The notes: generated by a model not told the origin, from the sequence alone. Positions 2,593-17,266 are shown, counted from the first letter of the stretch. The stretch: 64,000 bases of DNA from a virus (IMGVR_UViG_2816332256_000001:19827-83826), one strand, 5' to 3'. Made by a program: numbers and translations.

Positions 2593-3143
2593 TGCATGCG
2601 CGAGAGATGGCGCAACGGATCATGGGCACGCTGGTGCGCTGCACGGTCAAGCTCGTGAATTCGGGCGCGAAGATGCAGTCGCTGCAGTTGGGGCTACTGT
2701 CGGACGAACCCAAGGATGCGATGGAGCACTTCGAGCCGTATGGCTTCACGTCGCGTCCGAAGGCCGGTGCGGAAGGCGTGGCCGGCTTCTTCGGCGGCGA
2801 CCGCTCGCACGGCGTGGTGCTGGTGGTCGCCGATCGCCGTTACCGGCTGACGGGGCTGGCCGAGGGCGAGGTCGCGATCTACACCGACGAGGGCGCGAAG
2901 ATCGTGATGAAGCGCGGGCGGGTGATCGACGTCGAGTGTGACGAATATCGCGTCGTGACGAAGCACTACAGCGTGACTGCGGACGCGTACGACGTGACCG
3001 CGCAGGCGGCGTCGATCGACGCCGATCACGCGTCGTCGACGTGCCCGATCACCGCACCTGACGTCGTGCTCGACGGCAAGAGCATGGTCGTGCATCACCA
3101 CCTCGAGCACGACGGGCCGCCGACCGGAGGGCCGCTGTCATGA
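2592..3143 (+). CDS. Baseplate spike (Mu gp45 / assembly protein V)
   Basis: EHFEPYGFTSRP, GDRSHGV...DRRYR motifs; C-terminal HxH tip. Confidence 0.85.
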   Translation: MHAREMAQRIMGTLVRCTVKLVNSGAKMQSLQLGLLSDEPKDAMEHFEPYGFTSRPKAGAEGVAGFFGGDRSHGVVLVVADRRYRLTGLAEGEVAIYTDEGAKIVMKRGRVIDVECDEYRVVTKHYSVTADAYDVTAQAASIDADHASSTCPITAPDVVLDGKSMVVHHHLEHDGPPTGGPLS

Positions 3144-3544: not shown

Positions 3545-4586
3545 CGTTCCTACCTTGCCGACGCTGATTCAGCGCGCGGTTTCCGATCTCGCTGGCAGCG
3601 CATCGGATGCGCTGCGGCGATCCGACGCCCAGGTGCTTGCGCGCGTGCATTCGGGCGCCACGCATCTCGGTTACGGCTACCTGAAGTGGATTTCGAAGCA
3701 GCTGTTTCCGGACGAGTGTGACGAGGACATGCTGATCCGGCAGGCGAATCTGCGGTTGCGTGCCGGTCGCAAAGCGGCACAGGCGGCGACCGGGCTGGTC
3801 GGCGTGACCGGCCAGCCGCGCGCACCGGTCGGCGCGGATGCGTTGCTGCAGACGGCTGACCAGATCCAGTACAGGACGACGGCGGACACCACGCTCGATG
3901 CGAACGGCACGGGGGCGGTATTGGTGCGGGCCGTCGTGCCGGGCAAGGCCGGCAATCTGGATGGCGGGACGCGGCTCACGTTCGTATCGCCGGTCGACGG
4001 CGTGTCGAGCGACGCCGTGGTGTCGGCCGCCGGCATTCGCGGCGGCAGCGATATCGAGTCGATCGACGAATTGCGCAAGCGGGTCAAGGCCTCGTACCGG
4101 CGCACGCCAATGGGTGGCAACGGCGACGACTACGAGGACTGGGCGCTGGAGGTGCCGGGTGTGACGCGCGCGTGGGTGCGGCGTCGCTACATGGGGCCGG
4201 GCACGGTGGCCGTGTTCTTCATGCGGGATGACGACGACGATCCGTTCCCGGGTGAACCGGAGATCGCCGCCGCGACCGCGCATATCGAGGCACAGCGACC
4301 GCTCGGCGCCGAGTTGTATGTGCTGGCGCCCGTGGACCGGCCGGTCAAGTACCGGATCCGGCTGTCACCGGACACGGCGACGACGCGTGCCGCGGTGATC
4401 GCGTCACTGAAGGATCTGCATGCGCGCGAGGCGGATCTGGGTGTGACGTTTCTGCGCAGCCATATCGACGAAACGATCAGCACCACGGCCGGCGAGACCG
4501 ATCACGACCTGGTCGAGCCGGCCGTGAGCGTCGAGCTGGCGGTCAATGAGCTGCCGACATTCGGGGGCGTCGCATGGGTGACGTGA
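3534..4586 (+). CDS. Baseplate J / Mu gp47
   Basis: AVVPGKAGN, GG.DIES.DELR, GG..DY..WALEVPGV.RAWV motifs. Confidence 0.9.
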   Translation: MPFDVPTLPTLIQRAVSDLAGSASDALRRSDAQVLARVHSGATHLGYGYLKWISKQLFPDECDEDMLIRQANLRLRAGRKAAQAATGLVGVTGQPRAPVGADALLQTADQIQYRTTADTTLDANGTGAVLVRAVVPGKAGNLDGGTRLTFVSPVDGVSSDAVVSAAGIRGGSDIESIDELRKRVKASYRRTPMGGNGDDYEDWALEVPGVTRAWVRRRYMGPGTVAVFFMRDDDDDPFPGEPEIAAATAHIEAQRPLGAELYVLAPVDRPVKYRIRLSPDTATTRAAVIASLKDLHAREADLGVTFLRSHIDETISTTAGETDHDLVEPAVSVELAVNELPTFGGVAWVT

Positions 4587-5176
4587 GAACGGCAAGCGAC
4601 TACCTCGCGCAGCTGCGCCAGCTGTTGCCGCCGGGGCCGGCGTGGGACGTCGAGCTTGCGGCCGACGTCGACGCGGTGCTGCGCGGCTTGTCGGGCGAGT
4701 TCGCGCGGCTCGACGCCCGCGCGAGCGATCTGCTGAACGAGATCGATCCGGCGACGATGCGCGAGCTGGTGCCCGACTACGAGCGCGTGATGGCGCTTCC
4801 GGATCCGTGCCTCGGCGACGCGCCGACGTTCGACGCCAGAAAGAAGGCGGTGATCCGGCGACTGGTTGGAATGGGCGGGCAGAACGCGGCGTTTTTTGTC
4901 GGCGTCGCGGTCGAGCAGGGCTATCCCGACGCGTACGTCGTCGAGCATCGCGCGCCGCGTTTTGGCCGCTCGCGGTTTGGCGTCGCGCGGTTCGGGACAT
5001 GGGCGGCGCAGTTCTTCTGGGAGATGCATCTCGGTGCGCGGCGGCTGGGCGGCGCCCGGTTCGGCGTGACGCATTTTTCGGAGCGGTTCGGCAGCAACCC
5101 GAATAGCGGGATCGAGTGCCTGGTGCAGCGATGGATGCCGGCGCACACCGTGGTTGATTTCAAATACGGCGATTGA
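4574..5176 (+). CDS. Mu gp48 / YmfQ (DUF2313) baseplate protein
   Basis: LLPPGPAW, ERVMALPD.C, IEC....PAHT motifs. Confidence 0.85.
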   Translation: MGDVRTASDYLAQLRQLLPPGPAWDVELAADVDAVLRGLSGEFARLDARASDLLNEIDPATMRELVPDYERVMALPDPCLGDAPTFDARKKAVIRRLVGMGGQNAAFFVGVAVEQGYPDAYVVEHRAPRFGRSRFGVARFGTWAAQFFWEMHLGARRLGGARFGVTHFSERFGSNPNSGIECLVQRWMPAHTVVDFKYGD

Positions 5177-5185
5177 GGGGGGTTC

Positions 5186-5965
5186 ATGGATTTTCCACGT
5201 GCGGATGACGTCGGGCTCGTTAATGGCGAGTTCGTCGACGAGAACGCGGCGACGGGGCAGCCGGGGTCGTTGATCCCGGCGCGGTGGGGTAATGCGGTCA
5301 CGAAGGAATTGCTGGCGATTCAGGCTGCGGCGGGTATCGAGGCCGACGAGGCGGATACCTCTCAGGTGCTGCGGGCGCTCAATGGCCTTTTCCCGCGAAT
5401 CTACAGCATCGCGCAATTGCCGACCAAGAATGCCGGCCCGGTCATGGTGGCGGAGGTCGGGGAGATCTGGACGTGGTCGGCAAGCGCGTGTTTCACGGGC
5501 TACCGTTCGCAGTTGTGCGGTGACCCACTTTTCAGCGCGCGCGCCACGCCGCTCGTCCAGCATCTGGACGCTGTCGGCGGCTCGGTTAGCAAGGCCGCCT
5601 ATCCGGGCCTGTGGGGCTGGGCGCAGGAGCAAGGACTGGTTGTAACGGCTGCGAACTGGCTTGCTGGCACGCACCACTTCGTGGACAACGGCGACGGCAC
5701 GTTCAGGCTGCCCGATCTTCGCAACCAGTTTTTCCGGGCAACCGGAACTAACGCTGACACTACAAATGCTCGGGCCATCGGTTCAGATCAAGACGATTCC
5801 TTCAAATCTCACAATCACGGCATCACCGTTTCGTATACGGCGGCCGCAGGAGGTGTTGGCAACCTCATCGGTGGATCGACTATTTCGGCGACCGCTATCG
5901 CAAGTGCTGGCGGTTCAGAAACCCGCGGTCAGAACGTAGCCTATGCACCTCGCATCCATATCTGA
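5186..5965 (+). CDS. Tail fibre, collar domain plus currently expressed C-terminal cassette A
   Basis: Collar motif YP.LW...GDG.TFRLPDLR..F.R; tip with H-N-H and ETR..N.AYAPRIHI end. 191-aa constant part plus 68-aa cassette. Confidence 0.88.
   Translation: MDFPRADDVGLVNGEFVDENAATGQPGSLIPARWGNAVTKELLAIQAAAGIEADEADTSQVLRALNGLFPRIYSIAQLPTKNAGPVMVAEVGEIWTWSASACFTGYRSQLCGDPLFSARATPLVQHLDAVGGSVSKAAYPGLWGWAQEQGLVVTAANWLAGTHHFVDNGDGTFRLPDLRNQFFRATGTNADTTNARAIGSDQDDSFKSHNHGITVSYTAAAGGVGNLIGGSTISATAIASAGGSETRGQNVAYAPRIHI
5758..5769 (+). repeat. Putative crossover site 1, CACTACAAATGC
   Basis: In frame within the fibre gene just after the collar domain (codons T-T-N-A). Confidence 0.8.
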
Positions 5966-5971
5966 CCGCTG

Positions 5972-5983
5972 CACTACAAATGC
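5972..5983 (+). repeat. Putative crossover site 2, CACTACAAATGC
   Basis: Identical 12-mer beginning 6 bp after the fibre stop codon; opens cassette B in the same reading register. Confidence 0.8.
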
Positions 5984-6245
5984 ACTGGTGCTGGGTTCGG
6001 GCCAAGCCGACGCTCTTCAGAGAATCGTCGGCAACTTGTTCCCGACGATTCTCGGGTCCTCCGGATCCTCAATTCAATCTAGTGGCGTGTTCCAGTTCAT
6101 TAACCCATGGGAATTTCAGATTCCGCAGGGAGCGGGGGGCACGTGGACCGGAGCATTGACGAAATTCGACTCATCGCTCGTCACGCGTGCGTCGCCCGAA
6201 ACGCGCAGTACCAACACCGCTTACGCGCCTCGAATCCATATTTAA
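5973..6245 (+). other. Silent tail-fibre C-terminal cassette B (90 aa, no start codon of its own)
   Basis: TTNALVLGSGQADALQRIVG...FDSSLVTRASPETRSTNTAYAPRIHI*. Confidence 0.82.
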
Positions 6246-6451
6246 ATGTGGATGCGCGGCGCATATGCGGTGTTGGTCGGTCTAGTTTCGGCGCCCCCAG
6301 CCGATCCGCTCTGCGTGGTCTGAGTGCTTTGCCATTGATTAGGTTGGCCACCGGAGGACGTGCCAGACCATGTGATGTAAGAGGCGTAACCGTGGGTGTG
6401 CGCTCTAAACGCATCGGTTTGGGCTGAACCAATCACTCGCGCATTTGCAGT
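6242..6451 (-). other. Silent tail-fibre C-terminal cassette C (69 aa, inverted)
   Basis: TANARVIGSAQTDAFRAHTHG...GGAETRPTNTAYAPRIHI* on the minus strand; stop overlaps cassette B stop inside the palindrome ATTTAAAT (6240-6247). Confidence 0.82.
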
Positions 6452-6452
6452 G
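6441..6452 (-). repeat. Putative crossover site 3, CACTGCAAATGC (inverted)
   Basis: Plus strand GCATTTGCAGTG; 11/12 match to sites 1 and 2, opposite orientation. Confidence 0.8.
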
Positions 6453-6480
6453 CAAGATTCATTAACTAATTGAGATCGTT

Positions 6481-6843
6481 ATGAAAACGATGACGGTGTA
6501 CCAAACGGACCACGACGGGTGCTATCTATACCCGGTGGTTGCAAACGAGCTGGCACTTCAGCCCGACAGCTTCAACATTCCGTACGGGGCGGTGGAAACG
6601 GAGCCGCCGGAAGCTGCTTCGGGCACGGTTGCCCAATGGGCGGATGGCGCGTGGCAACTCGTGGCCGACAACCGCGGCACCGTGCTGTACGTTGCTGCGA
6701 CCGGTGTGCAGTATGAGTTCGGCTGCACAGTCGAGATCGACAGTGCGAGCGTCAGCTACAACGGGCTCGGCCCGATCCCTGCATGGCTGAGCGCAACCGC
6801 ACCGGCGGCGCAGCCTGCTGCCGATGCCGGCGCAGTTGCATGA
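6481..6843 (+). CDS. Tail fibre assembly chaperone-like protein
   Basis: Follows the fibre locus; YQ.D..G.Y..P...IP.GA....PP...W..G.W.LV.D.RG pattern. Confidence 0.75.
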   Translation: MKTMTVYQTDHDGCYLYPVVANELALQPDSFNIPYGAVETEPPEAASGTVAQWADGAWQLVADNRGTVLYVAATGVQYEFGCTVEIDSASVSYNGLGPIPAWLSATAPAAQPAADAGAVA

Positions 6844-6960
6844 CCCGGAGGCTTGCCGATTTCGCGAGTCACCAATAGCTGGTGCTGTGCGGCGCAGCCT
6901 TGTTTGCTTCATAAAAATTCGTGATGGTCTCCGGCCGCGCGGGGATGCATTGCAGGAAAT

Positions 6961-6987
6961 AACGCCGCTGCTTCAAGCGGCGTTTTT
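6961..6987 (+). terminator. Intrinsic terminator before lysis genes
   Basis: AACGCCGCT-GCTTCA-AGCGGCGTT followed by TTT. Confidence 0.65.
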
Positions 6988-7005
6988 CGTTTACGGGGAG
7001 TGGGG

Positions 7006-7290
7006 ATGCAGGAACACGAAAAAACGTTTCTGGAGCTGATCGTCATGGGCGCTTTCATCGGTGTGGCAAAGCTGCTTGTCAGCAGCGAGCAGCTGACGTT
7101 CCGCGTGGTTGCCGGCCGCGCATTGCTCGGATCCGCGACATCGATGGTGGCGGGCGTTGCGTTGTTGCAGATCCCGGATCTGCCGCCGCTCGCGCTGCTC
7201 GGTATCGGCAGCGCGCTCGGCATTGTCGGCTCGCAGTACATCGAAATCCTACTGCGTCGAAAGACGAAGGCAATTCTTGGGAAGGAGTAA
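7006..7290 (+). CDS. Holin
   Basis: 94 aa, 2-3 hydrophobic segments, basic C-terminus, upstream of endolysin; RBS GGGGAG. Confidence 0.75.
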   Translation: MQEHEKTFLELIVMGAFIGVAKLLVSSEQLTFRVVAGRALLGSATSMVAGVALLQIPDLPPLALLGIGSALGIVGSQYIEILLRRKTKAILGKE

Positions 7291-7295
7291 GCCGT

Positions 7296-7532
7296 TTGAA
7301 GCTGAGATTGATTGACGATTGGCGCCAGGCGCACAAGCTCGCATCCGTGCGCGCTTCGAGCGTGCTGGCGTTCGCATTCGGGGCGGGGCCGGCGCTGCTC
7401 GACGCGTGGCGCCAGATTCCGGCCGACCTGAAGGATGCGCTCCCGCACGGCTGGGCGCGGTGGATCACAACTGCCGGCTTCGTGCTGGTGCTGCTGGCGC
7501 GGATGACGCGCGTGGAGAAGGCCGATGGCTGA
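7296..7532 (+). CDS. Second small membrane protein (holin/antiholin-like)
   Basis: KLIDDWR.A.K..SV..., two hydrophobic segments, inside the lysis cassette. Confidence 0.6.
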   Translation: MKLRLIDDWRQAHKLASVRASSVLAFAFGAGPALLDAWRQIPADLKDALPHGWARWITTAGFVLVLLARMTRVEKADG

Positions 7533-8573: not shown

Positions 8574-9492
8574 ATGAAACGAATTTTCGCGGCTGCGCTG
8601 TGCGCGCTTTCAACCTTCGCTTTCGGCGCTACGCTTGCGCCAATTCAACTGCTCAACCCGGCGGGATCGACGAGCGGTCAGGTCATCGCGTCGAATGGTC
8701 CTACCGCGGCGCCATCGTGGCAGAGCGTGACGTACGGGATTCTGCCGACGATCGCGGCGAATTCAGTTCTCGGGAACAGGACAGCCAGTACGGCCGCGCC
8801 TGGCGCAGTATCGTTGCCGAGTGGCAGCACCACCAACAGCGCGCTGCAATACTCGAGCGGAACCGGGTTTTCGTGCGGAAGCGCGTTCGCTCTCACGAGC
8901 GGCACGCTCGCGCAATTTGCGTCGACCACGTCCGCGCAACTCGCGGGCGCGGTGTCGGATGAGACGGGAAGCGGAGCACTCGTATTCGGGACGTCTTCGA
9001 CGATTTCCAGCCCGACGCTCACCCGCACCACGACGGCCGCCGCCGTTACAGCGAGCGGTCTGATTACGCCCGCGAGCGCGGTCGGCATTAAGGGCACGAC
9101 GACAAACGATAGCCCGGCCGCGGGGAGCATGGGGGAGAACCCATCTGCCGGACCTACCACGACCGGAAACCTCACGACGGGTATCGCCGCCAACATAACG
9201 TCGCTGTCGTTGACCGCCGGTGACTGGGTTCTCACGGGAACATGCGCATGGTCGCCCTCTGGCGGCGCAAGTTTGACCGTGCAGCAGTGCGGCATCAGCA
9301 CGATGTCCGCGACATTCGGCGTGTTCGGTACCACTACCAGCTTGATGATTTCGGGGGGCAGCGCATCGGGAAGTGGAATTCCGACCCCAACAGTCGACCT
9401 GAAGCTCGCAGCGCCCACCACGGTGGAACGCAGGGTTCGGATCGGGAACCGTCACCGCTACAGGGCTAATCCGCGCTCGCCGCCCCCGGTAG
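8574..9492 (+). pseudogene. Secreted Ser/Thr-rich phage protein, frameshifted near the 3' end
   Basis: Signal peptide MKRIFAAALCALSTFAFG. The frame loses its composition after PTTV (~9425); the +1 frame continues AGFGSGTVTATGLIRARRPR* to TAG 9490-9492, which also removes the overlap with the next gene. Confidence 0.6.
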
Positions 9493-9556
9493 ATCGCCGG
9501 CTACCTACGGCCCGTGTTATGAGATATATTCCGCACTCTAACAACGGGGAAATATT

Positions 9557-10582
9557 TTGGACCGCCGGTTCGATTTGTTGCGGGTGCTTGCCTGCTTTAT
9601 GGTGGTTGTCGTTCACGTCTCAGGCGCCGATACGCTTTCGTTCGGTCCGAACTGGTGGGCCGGGAATCTCTACGACTCGCTAGCTCGTGCGTGCGTCCCC
9701 ATCTTCTTCATGCTTTCGGGCGCTACCTTGCTTCCGAAAGCAGAGCCGCTTTTTGTGTTTTTCAAAAAGAGGTTTGTAAAAGTTATCCCGCCTCTCGTTG
9801 TCTGGTCGTCCTTTTATCTCTGGTGGCTGTGGTACAACGGCGCACCGGTAGGGGGCGTACTCGATTGGGTCGCTGCTATTTTGCGCGGGCCGACCATGTT
9901 CCACCTGTGGTTCTTTTACGCGATCGTCGGCATTTATTTGTTCGTGCCAGCTATGCGTCGCCTGTATCAAGGATCAACACCTGTCGAGAAGTGGCTCGTT
10001 TTGGTGCTCTGGTTTATGTGGGTGTGCGTGTACCCGATGGCGCACACATTTCGAACCGGAGCCCCACTTGAAGGGCCGTCGAACAACCCACATTCGATTG
10101 GATATTTTGCGCCATATCTCGGCTACGTATTGCTTGGTGCTGTTCTAAGTGAGCGTACATGGCGCAAGACCACGGGCGCAATAATATTTGCGATCGGTAT
10201 ATCGGCAACTGCAATATTTACGTGGGCGCGATCCGCATACATCGGAACGCCGGTTGATGTCTTTTACCTCTACCTTTCTCCGACCGTAACCGTTGCTGCT
10301 GTCGGGCTGTTTATGTTTTTTCTCGGGATAAAACGGGGCGCACCATCTCGATTCCTCAGCAGCATGGCGCAATACACCGTGGCGATCTACGGCTTGCACG
10401 CCTTCGTTATCGATCCAGTCGCTTCCCGAATTGGCCTAAGCACCGTATCTGGAATCGGCTGGATCGACATTCCGCTCACGTCAGCATGCGTTTTCGTGGC
10501 GTCTGCTGTTGCGGTTCATGCTTGGCACCAGTGCAAACGTCTGGCGTATCTTTTTCGGCGTCGAGGCGCTCATCCTGCGTGA
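9557..10582 (+). CDS. Acyltransferase-3 family O-acetyltransferase (WecH/YiaH-like) moron
   Basis: DLLR..ACF.VV..H, VP.FFMLSG..LL, KKR, HLWF.Y...GIYL..P; about 10 TM segments; AT-richer than flanks. Confidence 0.85.
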   Translation: MDRRFDLLRVLACFMVVVVHVSGADTLSFGPNWWAGNLYDSLARACVPIFFMLSGATLLPKAEPLFVFFKKRFVKVIPPLVVWSSFYLWWLWYNGAPVGGVLDWVAAILRGPTMFHLWFFYAIVGIYLFVPAMRRLYQGSTPVEKWLVLVLWFMWVCVYPMAHTFRTGAPLEGPSNNPHSIGYFAPYLGYVLLGAVLSERTWRKTTGAIIFAIGISATAIFTWARSAYIGTPVDVFYLYLSPTVTVAAVGLFMFFLGIKRGAPSRFLSSMAQYTVAIYGLHAFVIDPVASRIGLSTVSGIGWIDIPLTSACVFVASAVAVHAWHQCKRLAYLFRRRGAHPA

Positions 10583-11127: not shown

Positions 11128-12201
11128 TCACTGCGTCTGCTTAGGCGCGAGCCGATCCAGCCACTCCCACCCGGCCCAGCGGTCGCCGGTGTGGCGCAGG
11201 TGGGTGTACCGCTTCAGGGACGCCCAACTGCGATGGCCTGTGACCGCAGCTACGTGCGGGATATTCCATCCCATCTCGAATAGGCGTGATGCGCCTTCAT
11301 GCCGCAGGTCGTGAAAGTGCAGGTCGTCGATCGCGAGGAATTCGCATGCCCGCGTGAAGCTCGCGCTGATCGACCGGTGGTTATAGGGAAAGATGCGCCC
11401 CTTGGCCGGCTTCACGGCATCAATAATGCGTGCTGCCTCCGGCGGCAAGTCGCACCATGTGTCGTTACCAATTTTCTGCCCCGGGTGCTTCATGTCGCGG
11501 ACCAGCACCCGGTCGCCCTGGTAGTCCTCGACGGCGATCGTCGTGATTTCCTCCTGCCTGCGTGTCGAGAAAAGCGCGAAAACGATGATCTCGCGCATTG
11601 GGATCTCGGCGCGCTCGCGCGCCTCCATATCGGTGTAGTAGGAGAGGATCCGATTGAGCTCGTCGGGGGCAGGGCGCCGGTCGCGCTGCCTTGAGCGGCC
11701 AGTCACGCCGAGATTTTTCAGGACCACTGTCGCGTCATCAAGCGCTTGCGCATCCAGCGGGTACCCCCATGCTGGCCGCGCGATGCGCACGACGGCGGCC
11801 AGGTGCGACATATAGTTCCCAACCGTCTGAGGCTTTACATCGAGGGACTGGGCGAACTGGACGTATTCACTGCTCCCGATCGCCGAGCTGCGCATCGCGC
11901 CAATCTCGGCGGCAGAGATTGTCCGCAGCACCTGCTCCTTTGTGCGCCCCATGTCTTTTTTCGATTCCCGGATGTACCGGTCGATCACGTCGGCGAGCGG
12001 CGGATCTTCCAGCTTCGCTGACTCGAGCGCGCCGGGGCGCGACAGCTCGCGCTCCCGCTTATCCAGCCATGCGCGCGCAGCGGCCTCGCGGTCGAACGTC
12101 TGAGCCTGGGTGAAAACAACCCTCCCATCCTCCTTTCGGCGGATCTGGGCGGTGTAGCCTATACTTCCATCCTTGCGTTTTCTGGGGGTGATCGTGCCCA
12201 T
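11128..12201 (-). CDS. int: Tyrosine integrase, dusA-associated (DAI) type
   Basis: Catalytic set R (STRRQEEI), K (DMKHP), HxxR (HDLRH), H (TGH), Y (KRYTH); divergent from and adjacent to dusA. Confidence 0.88.
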   Translation of the reverse strand: MGTITPRKRKDGSIGYTAQIRRKEDGRVVFTQAQTFDREAAARAWLDKRERELSRPGALESAKLEDPPLADVIDRYIRESKKDMGRTKEQVLRTISAAEIGAMRSSAIGSSEYVQFAQSLDVKPQTVGNYMSHLAAVVRIARPAWGYPLDAQALDDATVVLKNLGVTGRSRQRDRRPAPDELNRILSYYTDMEARERAEIPMREIIVFALFSTRRQEEITTIAVEDYQGDRVLVRDMKHPGQKIGNDTWCDLPPEAARIIDAVKPAKGRIFPYNHRSISASFTRACEFLAIDDLHFHDLRHEGASRLFEMGWNIPHVAAVTGHRSWASLKRYTHLRHTGDRWAGWEWLDRLAPKQTQ

Positions 12202-12247: not shown

Positions 12248-12322
12248 TCGGCCGCAAAAACCGGCAAAAACCACCGAAAACGGCGTCGAATCACACATGC
12301 CTAAACATGGCGTAAATGCTTG

Positions 12323-13363
12323 ATGCAACAGAATTTTTCAACGAAATCAACGGGTAGGCGCGTTTCCGTTGCGCCGATGCTCGACTGGACCGATCGTCAT
12401 TGCCGCTCGTTCCATCGCACGCTGACGCGCGACACGTGGCTGTATACGGAAATGATCACGACGGGCGCGCTGCTGTTCGGCGACGCGCAGCGGCATCTCG
12501 CGTTCACGCCGAACGAATCGCCGGTCGCGCTGCAACTCGGCGGCAGCGAACCGGACGATCTCGCCCGCGCCGCGAAGCTCGGCGAGCAGTGGGGCTACGA
12601 CGAGATCAACCTGAATTGCGGGTGCCCGTCCGAGCGCGTGCAGCGCGGCGCATTCGGTGCGTGCCTGATGAACGAGCCGCAACTCGTCGCCGACTGCGTG
12701 AAGGCGATGCGCGATGCGGTGTCGGTGCCCGTGACGGTCAAGCACCGGATCGGGGTCGACGCAGTGGAGGACTATGCATTTGTGCGCGACTTCGTCGGCA
12801 CGGTTGCGCAGGCAGGCTGCGACACGTTCATCGTGCATGCCCGCAATGCGATCCTGAAAGGGCTGTCGCCGAAGGAGAACCGCGAGATCCCGCCGCTCAA
12901 GTACGACTATGCGTATCGGCTGAAGCGCGATTTCCCGGCGCTGGAGATCGTGATCAACGGCGGGATCAAGACGCTCGACGAGGTGGCGGAGCATCTCGAG
13001 CACGTTGACGGCGTGATGCTCGGCCGCGAGGCGTATCACAACCCGTACGTGCTCGCGGGCGGCGATGCGCGCTTTTACGGATCGACTGCGCCGGCGCCGA
13101 CGCGCGAAGAGGCCGAGGCGAAGCTGATCGAATATTGCGCGGCGGAGTTGAAGCGCGGCACCTATCTCGGCGCGATCGTCCGGCACGCGCTCGGGCTGTA
13201 TCGCGGTGTCGCGGGCGCACGTGGCTGGCGGCGCGTGCTGTCGGACAACAAGAAGCTCGCGCGCGGCGATCTGAGCGTGTTCGACGAGGCGCGCACGCAT
13301 CTGAACGACGCTATCGAAAATTTTGAAAAAAATGCTTTGCAAGATGGAAAAGTGTTCGTATAA
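12323..13363 (+). CDS. dusA: tRNA-dihydrouridine(20/20a) synthase DusA
   Basis: SVAPMLDWTDRHCR, EINLNCGCPS.RVQ.G.FGACLM, VHAR, GVMLGREAY.NP motifs. Confidence 0.97.
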   Translation: MQQNFSTKSTGRRVSVAPMLDWTDRHCRSFHRTLTRDTWLYTEMITTGALLFGDAQRHLAFTPNESPVALQLGGSEPDDLARAAKLGEQWGYDEINLNCGCPSERVQRGAFGACLMNEPQLVADCVKAMRDAVSVPVTVKHRIGVDAVEDYAFVRDFVGTVAQAGCDTFIVHARNAILKGLSPKENREIPPLKYDYAYRLKRDFPALEIVINGGIKTLDEVAEHLEHVDGVMLGREAYHNPYVLAGGDARFYGSTAPAPTREEAEAKLIEYCAAELKRGTYLGAIVRHALGLYRGVAGARGWRRVLSDNKKLARGDLSVFDEARTHLNDAIENFEKNALQDGKVFV

Positions 13364-15219: not shown

Positions 15220-16341
15220 TCAGCGTGTCGCACGCACTTTTCGTTGTCTGCGGCGATCGTATGTCTTTCGTACCATCCGTTCGTCCGCATGGCCAGTCGC
15301 ATCGATAATCCGGTCGTCGCCTTCCTCCTGGCGATCGGTCACGGCGGCCGGCCGCATGTCACGCAGCGCGAACCGTTCGAACGGCACGCAGCGCGCCTGC
15401 GCTTCCTTCTCGCAATAGCCCATCAGCCGGGACCAGTTCGTGTTCCAGCCGCTGCGCGTGTACACCTGGCCGGCGGTGTTGCCGAACACGTGGACGCTCG
15501 ATGTGCGCTGCAGCGCGAGCGCCTCGTCGATCACGGCCTTCAGCTCGGGCGACCACAACACGAGTTTTACGCGCTGCTGCTCGCCGGCCTTGCGCTTCCC
15601 GATCGGCACCTCGACGCCTTCCGGCCTGATGCTCTGGCGGTGCAGCTCGCGCATCTCGGTCGGCCGGCTGACGGTGAGGTATGCCGCCTGCACGCAGAGC
15701 GCCAGAATCAAGTATGCGGAGCTGGGATGCTGATCGCCGACGCTGCGGCGCGAGCGCGCGACTTCGACCGCGAGATCGATCTCGTCCTGACGCACGTAGC
15801 GCTGGCGCGGCCGGGTCGGGTTGTACTCGATGCCGCGGCACGGGTTCGTTTCGAGGTCGCCGCGGCGCCGGCCGTATTCGAGGATCGCGGACAGGAGGGC
15901 GATTTCCTTGTTCGCCTTCGCCGGCGCGCCGAGCTGCGCACGTTTGTCGAGGTAGCCATAGACGTGCTTCGGCTTGATCGCGGCCGGCGCCATCTTCCCG
16001 AAGACCTTGACCAAGCGCTTCGACTCGACGCGGTTCTCGTCCAGGGTGGACTGCGCCTTGCGGCGCTCGTCGGTGTGCGGTAATCCGTCCTGCCATTCGA
16101 AGTACCGCGCGACGAGCGCCTCGACCGTGCCAGGTTCGATCGCATTCCCGTTGAGAGCTTCCGCACGCTCGATCGCCTGCTTGCGGATCTCGGCGAGCGC
16201 TTCCTTGTTGTGGGCAGGCGCCGACAGGCGGAACGCCCAGCGGCCGTTCGGCAGCTTGTAGCCGAAGCTGACCTTGTGTTTCCCGTAGTGGGCGTAGAGC
16301 CGGAAGGGTAACCCGTCCGGCCGCTTGCGTCGTCCGATCAT
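15220..16341 (-). CDS. int: Tyrosine integrase of prophage 2
   Basis: SRPTE, RDMRP, TGH, KTYDR catalytic motifs; points toward the tRNA att site. Confidence 0.9.
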   Translation of the reverse strand: MIGRRKRPDGLPFRLYAHYGKHKVSFGYKLPNGRWAFRLSAPAHNKEALAEIRKQAIERAEALNGNAIEPGTVEALVARYFEWQDGLPHTDERRKAQSTLDENRVESKRLVKVFGKMAPAAIKPKHVYGYLDKRAQLGAPAKANKEIALLSAILEYGRRRGDLETNPCRGIEYNPTRPRQRYVRQDEIDLAVEVARSRRSVGDQHPSSAYLILALCVQAAYLTVSRPTEMRELHRQSIRPEGVEVPIGKRKAGEQQRVKLVLWSPELKAVIDEALALQRTSSVHVFGNTAGQVYTRSGWNTNWSRLMGYCEKEAQARCVPFERFALRDMRPAAVTDRQEEGDDRIIDATGHADERMVRKTYDRRRQRKVRATR

Positions 16342-16343
16342 GA

Positions 16344-16583
16344 TTAGAGTGCGGCGAAGTTCGGTTCTTCTGAGGCGGCAGCGCGCTGCCGGCGCGCGGA
16401 TGATGGCGCTGCGGTGCCGTTCATGCGGGCTTCGTAATACTCGCGCGCGACGAGCGGCACGCCGGCGATGTTGACCGCGAACGGCCAGTGATTGCGCTCG
16501 AGCCAGCGTTTCATGCAGGCGTGGCTGCGCGGCTTGCAGCCCACCAGCTCGGCCAGCTCTGGCGTGGTGAGGTAGATGCTCAT
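16344..16583 (-). CDS. Excisionase-like (DUF4224)
   Basis: YLT..EL.ELVG.K....WL...W.F...AG.P.V.R; directly upstream of int. Confidence 0.75.
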   Translation of the reverse strand: MSIYLTTPELAELVGCKPRSHACMKRWLERNHWPFAVNIAGVPLVAREYYEARMNGTAAPSSARRQRAAASEEPNFAAL

Positions 16584-17266
16584 GGTGAGATCCTGCGAAA
16601 TTCAACGACCCAGACCCAGGGATTGGTGTCCCAGCCATGCCCACGCGCCGCGTTCAGGCTGTCCCACAGGTCATGAAAGGCGCGGATGCTGGGCGGCCGG
16701 TATGCGCCGGCGCAGTAACCGCGCATGTGATGGTCCTCGATCGTCACGCCTTCGGCGCGCGCGTCCGACTCGCTGATGCTCTGCAGGCGCTCGGCGCGCA
16801 CGCGCGTGATTTCCAGCGTGATGCGCGACGCCCAGCGCGGCATGTGGATCGATGGCGTCCAGCGCTGGTAGTTGTAGAGCGTGGGGTTGTATCCCGGCGG
16901 TGCGATGACTTCGAATTGACCTCCTGCGGCATATGCGATGTTCCAACGTGTGGCTTGCGGCTGTTTCGGCGCCGCGTCAAACGGCGCCGGCATGAACGCT
17001 TCGCGCACCCACATCCGGTCGCCAATCTCGCCGAACGGCGATTTGCATCCCCATTCGCCGTCATCGCTGAATGCGCCGAAGATCTCCGGGCCGGGCGCCT
17101 CGTCGCCGCGCCGGTCGATGATCGTCGGGTGGTAACGCGCGGCGGTGATCGGCGTGACATCGACGGGCGGCTGGTGCTTCATCGCGCGGCGCGTCTGCGT
17201 CTTGCGGCCTTCGAGGATGGCGCGCACCATCGGGCCGCTGAAAAGGATCGGGCGCTCTTTCATCAT
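16580..17266 (-). CDS. Phage protein, ASCH/PUA-like family
   Basis: ERPILFSGPMVRAILEGRKTQTRR...W.PSIHMPRWASRI.LEIT.VR.ERLQ. Confidence 0.7.
   Translation of the reverse strand: MMKERPILFSGPMVRAILEGRKTQTRRAMKHQPPVDVTPITAARYHPTIIDRRGDEAPGPEIFGAFSDDGEWGCKSPFGEIGDRMWVREAFMPAPFDAAPKQPQATRWNIAYAAGGQFEVIAPPGYNPTLYNYQRWTPSIHMPRWASRITLEITRVRAERLQSISESDARAEGVTIEDHHMRGYCAGAYRPPSIRAFHDLWDSLNAARGHGWDTNPWVWVVEFRRISP

Follow-up and report, generated by a model that had tools for sequence, protein, structure and literature searches.

The fibre locus considered here raises the question of whether a Burkholderia prophage that carries one complete tail-fibre gene and two silent fibre tips, each tip behind a copy of the same 12-bp site, can exchange one tip for another, and which enzyme would do so. 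The first-pass annotation had described the locus as a three-state switch and had named no enzyme for it. The window, that is, the whole 64-kb stretch of DNA that was analysed, is part of an 83.8-kb provirus record in IMG/VR, and the same fibre protein is encoded on chromosome CP013453.1 (3.32 Mb).

Anatomy of the fibre locus

The locus consists of the following features, with positions counted from the first letter of the window.

5186-5965 (+): fibre ORF, 259 aa, stop codon at 5963-5965
5186-5757 (+): constant part of the fibre gene (residues 1-191), which extends to just past the collar motif FRLPDLRNQF
5758-5769 (+): site 1, CACTACAAATGC, at the constant/variable junction, residues 191-195
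5758-5965 (+): cassette A, the expressed tip, 68 aa, with an HNH motif and the C-terminal sequence AYAPRIHI
5972-5983 (+): site 2, CACTACAAATGC, a direct repeat of site 1 that starts 6 bp past the stop codon
5972-6245 (+): cassette B, a silent tip read from 5973 to 6245, 90 aa, without HxH, C-terminal sequence AYAPRIHI
6242-6452 (-): cassette C, a silent inverted tip read from 6451 to 6242, 69 aa, with an HTH motif and the C-terminal sequence AYAPRIHI
6441-6452 (-): site 3, CACTGCAAATGC, the consensus of the family in inverted orientation, with the assembly gene starting 28 bp further on
6481-6843 (+): single tail-fibre assembly (chaperone) gene, matching PHROG assembly families, outside the invertible DNA
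6844-6999: spacer of 156 bp between the assembly gene and the holin gene, with a terminator-like hairpin at 6961-6984

A pattern search of the 64 kb that allowed one mismatch found exactly three matches to the 12-mer, against a chance expectation of 0.07 matches on average; three were reached in none of 100 shuffles. The sites lie at the positions and in the orientations given by the first-pass annotation, and its 191-aa constant part and 6-bp spacing of site 2 from the stop codon also hold. The orientations (+,+,-) provide at least one inverted pair, with each copy opening a cassette. The extended pattern 12-mer-N10-GGTTC-N4-CAA is present at all three sites, and the tips of 68, 90 and 69 aa lie in one codon register when they are counted from the ACT of each site, both as originally described. 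When the three site contexts are aligned, likeness begins at the site and there is none upstream of it, which agrees with the earlier statement that similarity ends at the sites. Cassettes B and C are convergent, their stop codons overlap at TTAA, and their ends form the 48-nt inverted repeat I2.

The Pfam Collar domain covers residues 161-182 of the fibre protein. PHROG profiles place the whole fibre protein, and also B and C separately, in tail-fibre or tail-collar fibre families, and the three tips are only 30-50% identical among themselves. B and C are fully open and retain the conserved C-terminal motif; AYAPRIHI ends all three tips and nearly all of the tips of relatives. A sequence-profile search of solved structures gave no match. 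The division of the tips into an HxH type (A and C) and another class (B) was correctly drawn, and the class of B is the one expressed in two related loci, L050 and L051, to whose tips B is 37-40% identical.

The claim that neither B nor C has a start of its own is right for C, which has no start codon upstream of its site. It needs qualification for B, where an in-frame ATG at 5943, within the end of cassette A, opens a 100-aa ORF; no ribosome-binding site was recognised by eye at this ATG. No promoter-like site was found in 5100-7100. The locus has one constant 5' coding part and start-less alternative 3' cassettes in one register, which is the arrangement expected of a shufflon, and judged from its sequence the architecture is that of a real one. 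The proposed inversion logic is sound, in that one inversion would join C to the constant part and two successive inversions would join B.

A family of fibre-tip shufflons in the Burkholderiales

The same 12-mer family occurs in prophages of Burkholderia, Paraburkholderia, Pandoraea, Achromobacter and Bordetella, where 2 to 6 cassettes accompany the 12-mer (L007, L008, L010, L014, L050, L053, L078-L090, L095-L097, L099, L100 and L104-L106). The nearest fibre homologue, which is 80% identical, is that of a Burkholderia multivorans prophage (L007). Between the tape-measure region and position 5784, 15 bp past site 1, the DNA of this prophage matches the window at 94.7% identity, and beyond that point the relationship is mosaic. 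L007 has four copies of CACTGCAAATGC (+,+,-,-) that bound four cassettes, then the assembly gene, and between the assembly gene and the holin gene a 331-aa PF00589 recombinase is encoded on the opposite strand. Cassette C is 59% identical to the expressed tip of L007. The assembly protein encoded in the window is 62% identical to that of L007 and 82% identical to that of L104.

Elsewhere, Paraburkholderia saeva (L008) has three sites, Pandoraea pnomenusa (L010) has two and Achromobacter (L078-L087) has up to six. The module is also present in Pandoraea captiosa (L014), in IMG/VR contigs (L050 and L053), in soil-metagenome phages (L104-L106), in six more genomes of the bacterial family (L091, L095-L097, L099 and L100) and, together with a P2-type baseplate, in a Bordetella bronchialis prophage (L088-L090). 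Two loci, L051 and L052, have the variant site CAGTGCAAATGA. GenBank phage records contain no close relative of the fibre region, and scans with the fibre protein found one weak viral locus and none in genome contigs.

Is the 12-mer conserved as DNA or because of the peptide that it encodes? In 57 distinct sites from 21 loci of relatives, conservation is 98-100% at every position of the 12-mer except position 3, where it is 92%; the flank upstream of the 12-mer is not conserved and the downstream flank is partly so. The genes of this phage use the three whole codons of the site sparingly: ACT, GCA and AAT stand for 3%, 13% and 29% of the codons in their respective synonymous sets. Since rare codons stand in a near-invariant 12-mer, conservation acts on the DNA and not just on the protein. 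L011, a locus with one tip on its related fibre, is a natural control: recombinase and site are both missing from it, and GC-rich codons encode the same peptide.

The recombinase that accompanies the family is a PF00589 protein of 331-340 aa encoded directly after the tail-fibre assembly gene, and it is present in all of the relatives that have at least two cassettes and readable DNA past the assembly gene. The L007 enzyme (P0076) serves as the reference for the family, and the other recombinases share 50-77% identity with it. More than 2,900 homologues (E 1e-20 or better) are present in the database, and 2,293 plasmids, for the most part conjugative plasmids of enterobacteria, give a match to the L007 recombinase. 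On ColIb-P9 the matching protein is Rci, the recombinase of 384 aa whose gene adjoins that of the pilV shufflon adhesin, and P0076 is 37% identical to it over 323 aa (E 1e-47). The phage enzyme is without the ~85 C-terminal residues of Rci, an extension that the literature ties to the handling of asymmetric sites. In L007 a separate P4-type integrase lies 8 kb further on, at the prophage end, and therefore the Rci-like enzyme is not the integrase there. Homologues are also found in other settings. For example, L092 (745-2487, -) encodes a recombinase 75% identical to the fibre invertase as the first 325 aa of a 580-aa ORF. Neither L092 nor L098 has a fibre gene, an assembly gene or the 12-mer within 1.5 kb, which implies that this recombinase clade is not exclusive to fibre loci.

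The first-pass annotation had suggested that cassette order be compared in related prophages, and this comparison shows that the family does shuffle. Four Achromobacter loci from one study (L083, L085, L086 and L087) have an identical recombinase and flanks that are 100% identical over 2-3.2 kb on each side. One set of six cassettes is common to the four, but no two arrange it alike in order and orientation, and three of its tips are found fused to the constant part. Three Bordetella bronchialis loci (L088-L090), which are 99.6-100% identical, have three arrangements, and their left and right flanks are exchanged exactly at the 12-mer. Because these prophages are nearly identical apart from re-assortment at the 12-mer, the relatives do shuffle there. 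Achromobacter loci with an identical recombinase protein (L078-L082 compared with L079 and L083-L087) have three, four or six sites, and this variation may reflect deletions between direct sites.

Contigs often end inside shufflon loci (L014/L049, L090 and L009), and some database fibre proteins are cut off at the site or within the shufflon and annotated as "partial" (P0008 and P0009). Both observations fit mixed populations; short-read assemblies tend to break at these loci, which is a source of truncated annotations. In L007 the expressed cassette is present again, inverted, beside the assembly gene (6573-6815 and 7270-7512), and the two copies encode the same tip and share flanking DNA. 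L105 is similar, with its expressed cassette at 3000 (+) and again, inverted beside the assembly gene, at 3972 (-). These second copies are either true duplications or the product of assembling a mixed population.

The cassettes move from phage to phage as well. Two metagenome contigs (X5 and X9) match 5751-5983, which includes cassette A, at ~95% and have other DNA on both sides, and P0006 and P0012 have as their expressed tips sequences that are silent cassettes in L007. The 12-bp site also marks the places where unrelated phages trade tips.

These observations suggest a simple scheme for the family. The Rci-like recombinase encoded after the assembly gene would be the catalyst and would recombine inverted copies of CACTGCAAATGC, which opens every tip cassette, and in this way the constant part, with its baseplate-attachment region and collar domain, would be joined to one of several receptor-binding tips. 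One assembly protein, encoded outside the invertible DNA, would presumably serve every tip. The tips probably differ in receptor specificity, and a temperate phage with such a shufflon would hedge its host range.

The missing recombinase and the state of this copy

Upstream of the fibre gene in this prophage are the Mu-type baseplate genes gp45, gp46, Baseplate_J and gp48. Downstream, the order is holin, endolysin, an Rz-like gene, a 369-aa Ser/Thr-rich ORF, an acyltransferase and a tyrosine integrase. The 369-aa ORF (8574-9683, +) has a signal-peptide-like start, a Ser/Thr/Gly-rich body and weak matches to virion proteins; the reading frame seems wrong over its last ~90 residues, where it overlaps the beginning of the acyltransferase gene, and the ORF may be frameshifted. 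The acyltransferase (9557-10582, +), a member of the Acyl_transf_3 family (E 2e-36) that lies between the lysis genes and the integrase, is likely to be a lysogenic-conversion gene and could modify surface polysaccharides. The end of the prophage and its neighbour are as follows.

11128-12201 (-): DusA-type tyrosine integrase, PF00589, the only recombinase in the prophage
12320-13363: dusA, Pfam Dus (E 2e-84), head to head with the integrase and 118 bp from it
15220-16644 (-): second tyrosine integrase, of a neighbouring element just past dusA

An Rci-like tyrosine integrase that adjoins the 5' end of dusA is the mark of a DusA-associated integrase element, and the earlier view of a dusA-integrated prophage is borne out by this head-to-head arrangement; a search of the 83.8-kb record for the attachment-site repeats of the element gave no convincing repeat. 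The integrase at 15220-16644 is unrelated to the fibre invertase family.

A shufflon should also have an Rci-clade recombinase beside its invertible DNA, and here the window differs from its relatives. The two PF00589 matches in the record are the DusA-type integrase and the integrase of the second element, neither of which belongs to the family, and when the 83.8-kb record is searched by tblastn with three family recombinases, the sole hit is the DusA-type integrase (26% identity). Between the assembly gene and the holin gene, 167 bp in the window (6810-6976) stand in place of 1.4 kb with the recombinase in L007. In L104, which has the closest assembly protein, the recombinase follows directly after the assembly gene. 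The window is the sole locus without the enzyme among the loci that have at least two cassettes and readable downstream DNA. A remnant of the gene was looked for between the assembly gene and the holin gene, and none was found by tblastn or short-word blastn.

Two other kinds of variation system were considered and rejected. A serine-invertase switch of the Gin/Cin/Pin/Min type is ruled out, as the record has no match to PF00239 and control genomes do match. A diversity-generating retroelement is rejected because there is no PF00078 reverse transcriptase and the cassettes are not near-copies of one another.

Two of the sites also differ from those of the family. Position 5 of the 12-mer is A in sites 1 and 2 and G in site 3, as it is in all 57 sites of the relatives. 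It follows that 1x3 and 2x3, which are the only pairings able to invert, each contain an internal mismatch. With tyrosine recombinases, a mismatch within the strand-exchange region impairs recombination, and the one at position 5 would do so if it lay in that region. The same G-to-A change is found in both direct sites, at a position that is otherwise invariant, and simple decay does not explain such a paired change.

The three-state switch of the first-pass annotation therefore survives in its architecture and its family; present-day switching among three states in this prophage is doubtful because the recombinase is missing and sites 1 and 2 are mismatched with site 3 at position 5. The one sequencing run that contains the whole locus is probably that of the source strain. 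Its contigs include one that is collinear across the locus with no joints, and rare forms are invisible in contigs. The junctions that inversion would produce (constant part with C, and assembly-gene flank with A) did not appear in metagenome and viral contig collections, which is uninformative for so rare a phage.

The reading that we prefer, to which we assign a probability of roughly 0.6, is that this is a genuine member of the shufflon family that has lost its recombinase and is most likely locked on tip A. The recombinase gene would have disappeared as the stretch from the assembly gene to the holin gene was replaced in mosaic fashion; tip A alone would be expressed, and B and C would be intact but stranded cassettes. 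Their intactness speaks against locking, and it would mean either that the loss was recent or that selection is still acting on them. Two further points could also count against a locked state: the prophage's own integrase is Rci-like, and a family enzyme could be encoded beyond the searched 83.8 kb of a multi-replicon genome.

The last point leads to the proposal that a family recombinase encoded at another place in the host genome, such as a second prophage, drives switching in trans. The intact cassettes would be accounted for, the 12-mer is universal across phages with Mu-like and with P2-like tail modules, so that one enzyme could serve foreign sites, and one Pandoraea genome does carry two copies of the family. 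We nevertheless consider action in trans unlikely. Of the 301 sampled genomes of the bacterial family, as few as 9 were found to have the gene at E 1e-80 or better, a figure that is a lower bound, and position 5, at which the relatives never vary, distinguishes sites 1 and 2 from site 3. None of the best 120 database homologues is listed on the 3,322,910-bp contig of the host, although this is weak evidence.

Another candidate is the integrase of the prophage itself, which as an Rci relative might also invert the fibre DNA and so have made a dedicated invertase dispensable. It is the sole recombinase of the prophage, its 242-aa alignment with Rci shows 32% identity and a strong resemblance in the catalytic C-terminal region, and Rci is the closest characterised relative of the DusA-associated integrases (Farrugia et al. 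2015, PMC4482086). Set against this, its identity to the family invertase is just 26%, and the window contains no other copy of the 12-mer with up to one mismatch, the integrase-dusA junction included. In all of the relatives examined, the site goes with the P0076 family and not with DusA-type integrases, and the closest relative, L007, keeps its invertase separate from its integrase. A dual role of this kind is therefore quite improbable. We attach even less weight to a variant in which the DusA-type integrase took over the inversions after the loss, so that one enzyme would carry out integration, excision and host-range switching and the A-variant sites would reflect its specificity.

Finally, it is scarcely credible that the cassettes never switched in this lineage and are debris of horizontal tip exchange, with the 12-mer a mere coding motif, DT(A/T)NA. 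In favour of this view, tips are exchanged among phages with different constant parts (X5/X9, P0006 and P0012) and the likeness to L007 is interrupted at the site. Against it, rare codons are an invariant feature of the site, L011 has the same peptide without the site, and the start-less, in-register cassettes are arranged as in actively shuffling relatives; at the level of the family this explanation is largely refuted.

Returning to the locked shufflon, the copy in the window is probably not a working switch itself. Its value would lie in being a natural recombinase-less version of the family, a locked substrate with which to test which enzyme acts. The site and the enzyme of the relatives could also serve as a ready-made means of swapping tips in phages that are studied against these bacteria.

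Relationship to known systems

A search of the available literature found no paper on a fibre-shufflon family in the Burkholderiales, including Achromobacter and Burkholderia, and the 12-mer appeared in no relevant paper.

A close parallel in mechanism is the pilV shufflon of R64 and ColIb-P9. The comparison with R64 in the first-pass annotation is apt, since the relatives have a true, full-length Rci homologue and re-assort exactly at the 12-mer. Both systems combine a constant 5' portion of a gene with several 3' cassettes, which occur in convergent pairs, and both use a short, asymmetric site whose conservation is confined to the cassette side. The six sites that are all kept across the cassette orders in the near-identical Achromobacter contig sets are a further likeness. 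The differences are that the variable protein here is a phage tail fibre with a collar domain instead of a conjugative pilus adhesin, that the family site is CACTGCAAATGC and the R64 site is sfx, and that the family enzyme is without the Rci C-terminal extension (~85 aa), while the window is without the enzyme gene altogether. Through this family a plasmid enzyme, Rci, is linked with tail fibres in phages of Burkholderia, Pandoraea, Achromobacter and Bordetella.

The Mu G (Gin), P1 C (Cin) and p15B Min segments resemble this locus in that inversion selects among fibre C-termini and the crossover lies inside the fibre gene. These systems use serine invertases, none of which is encoded in the 83.8-kb record, and so the parallels that were drawn with them earlier stand as analogies only. 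In Mu G, P1 C and p15B Min each invertible segment carries its own assembly gene, whereas here one assembly gene outside the invertible DNA is common to all of the tips.

The DusA-associated integrases (PMC4482086) have the same head-to-head arrangement with dusA and are likewise Rci-like. They are known for integration and excision at dusA, and no role in inversion has been described for them.

A counterpart among phages is the Rin shufflon of Bifidobacterium breve and Bifidobacterium longum prophages (Mavrich et al. 2018, PMC6109161), in which a receptor-binding protein is varied and a tyrosine recombinase adjoins it. As in the family described here, a constant N-terminal part is followed by several C-terminal cassettes, each behind a short asymmetric repeat; the Rin system differs in its actinobacterial hosts, in its tail type and in its site, TTCCCTAACCC. 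Programmed inversions in tail-fibre genes have also been catalogued already (PMC9881135). In conclusion, the principle is a known one, with R64 and Rin as precedents, and Rin is an example of a shufflon in which a tyrosine recombinase varies a phage receptor-binding protein.
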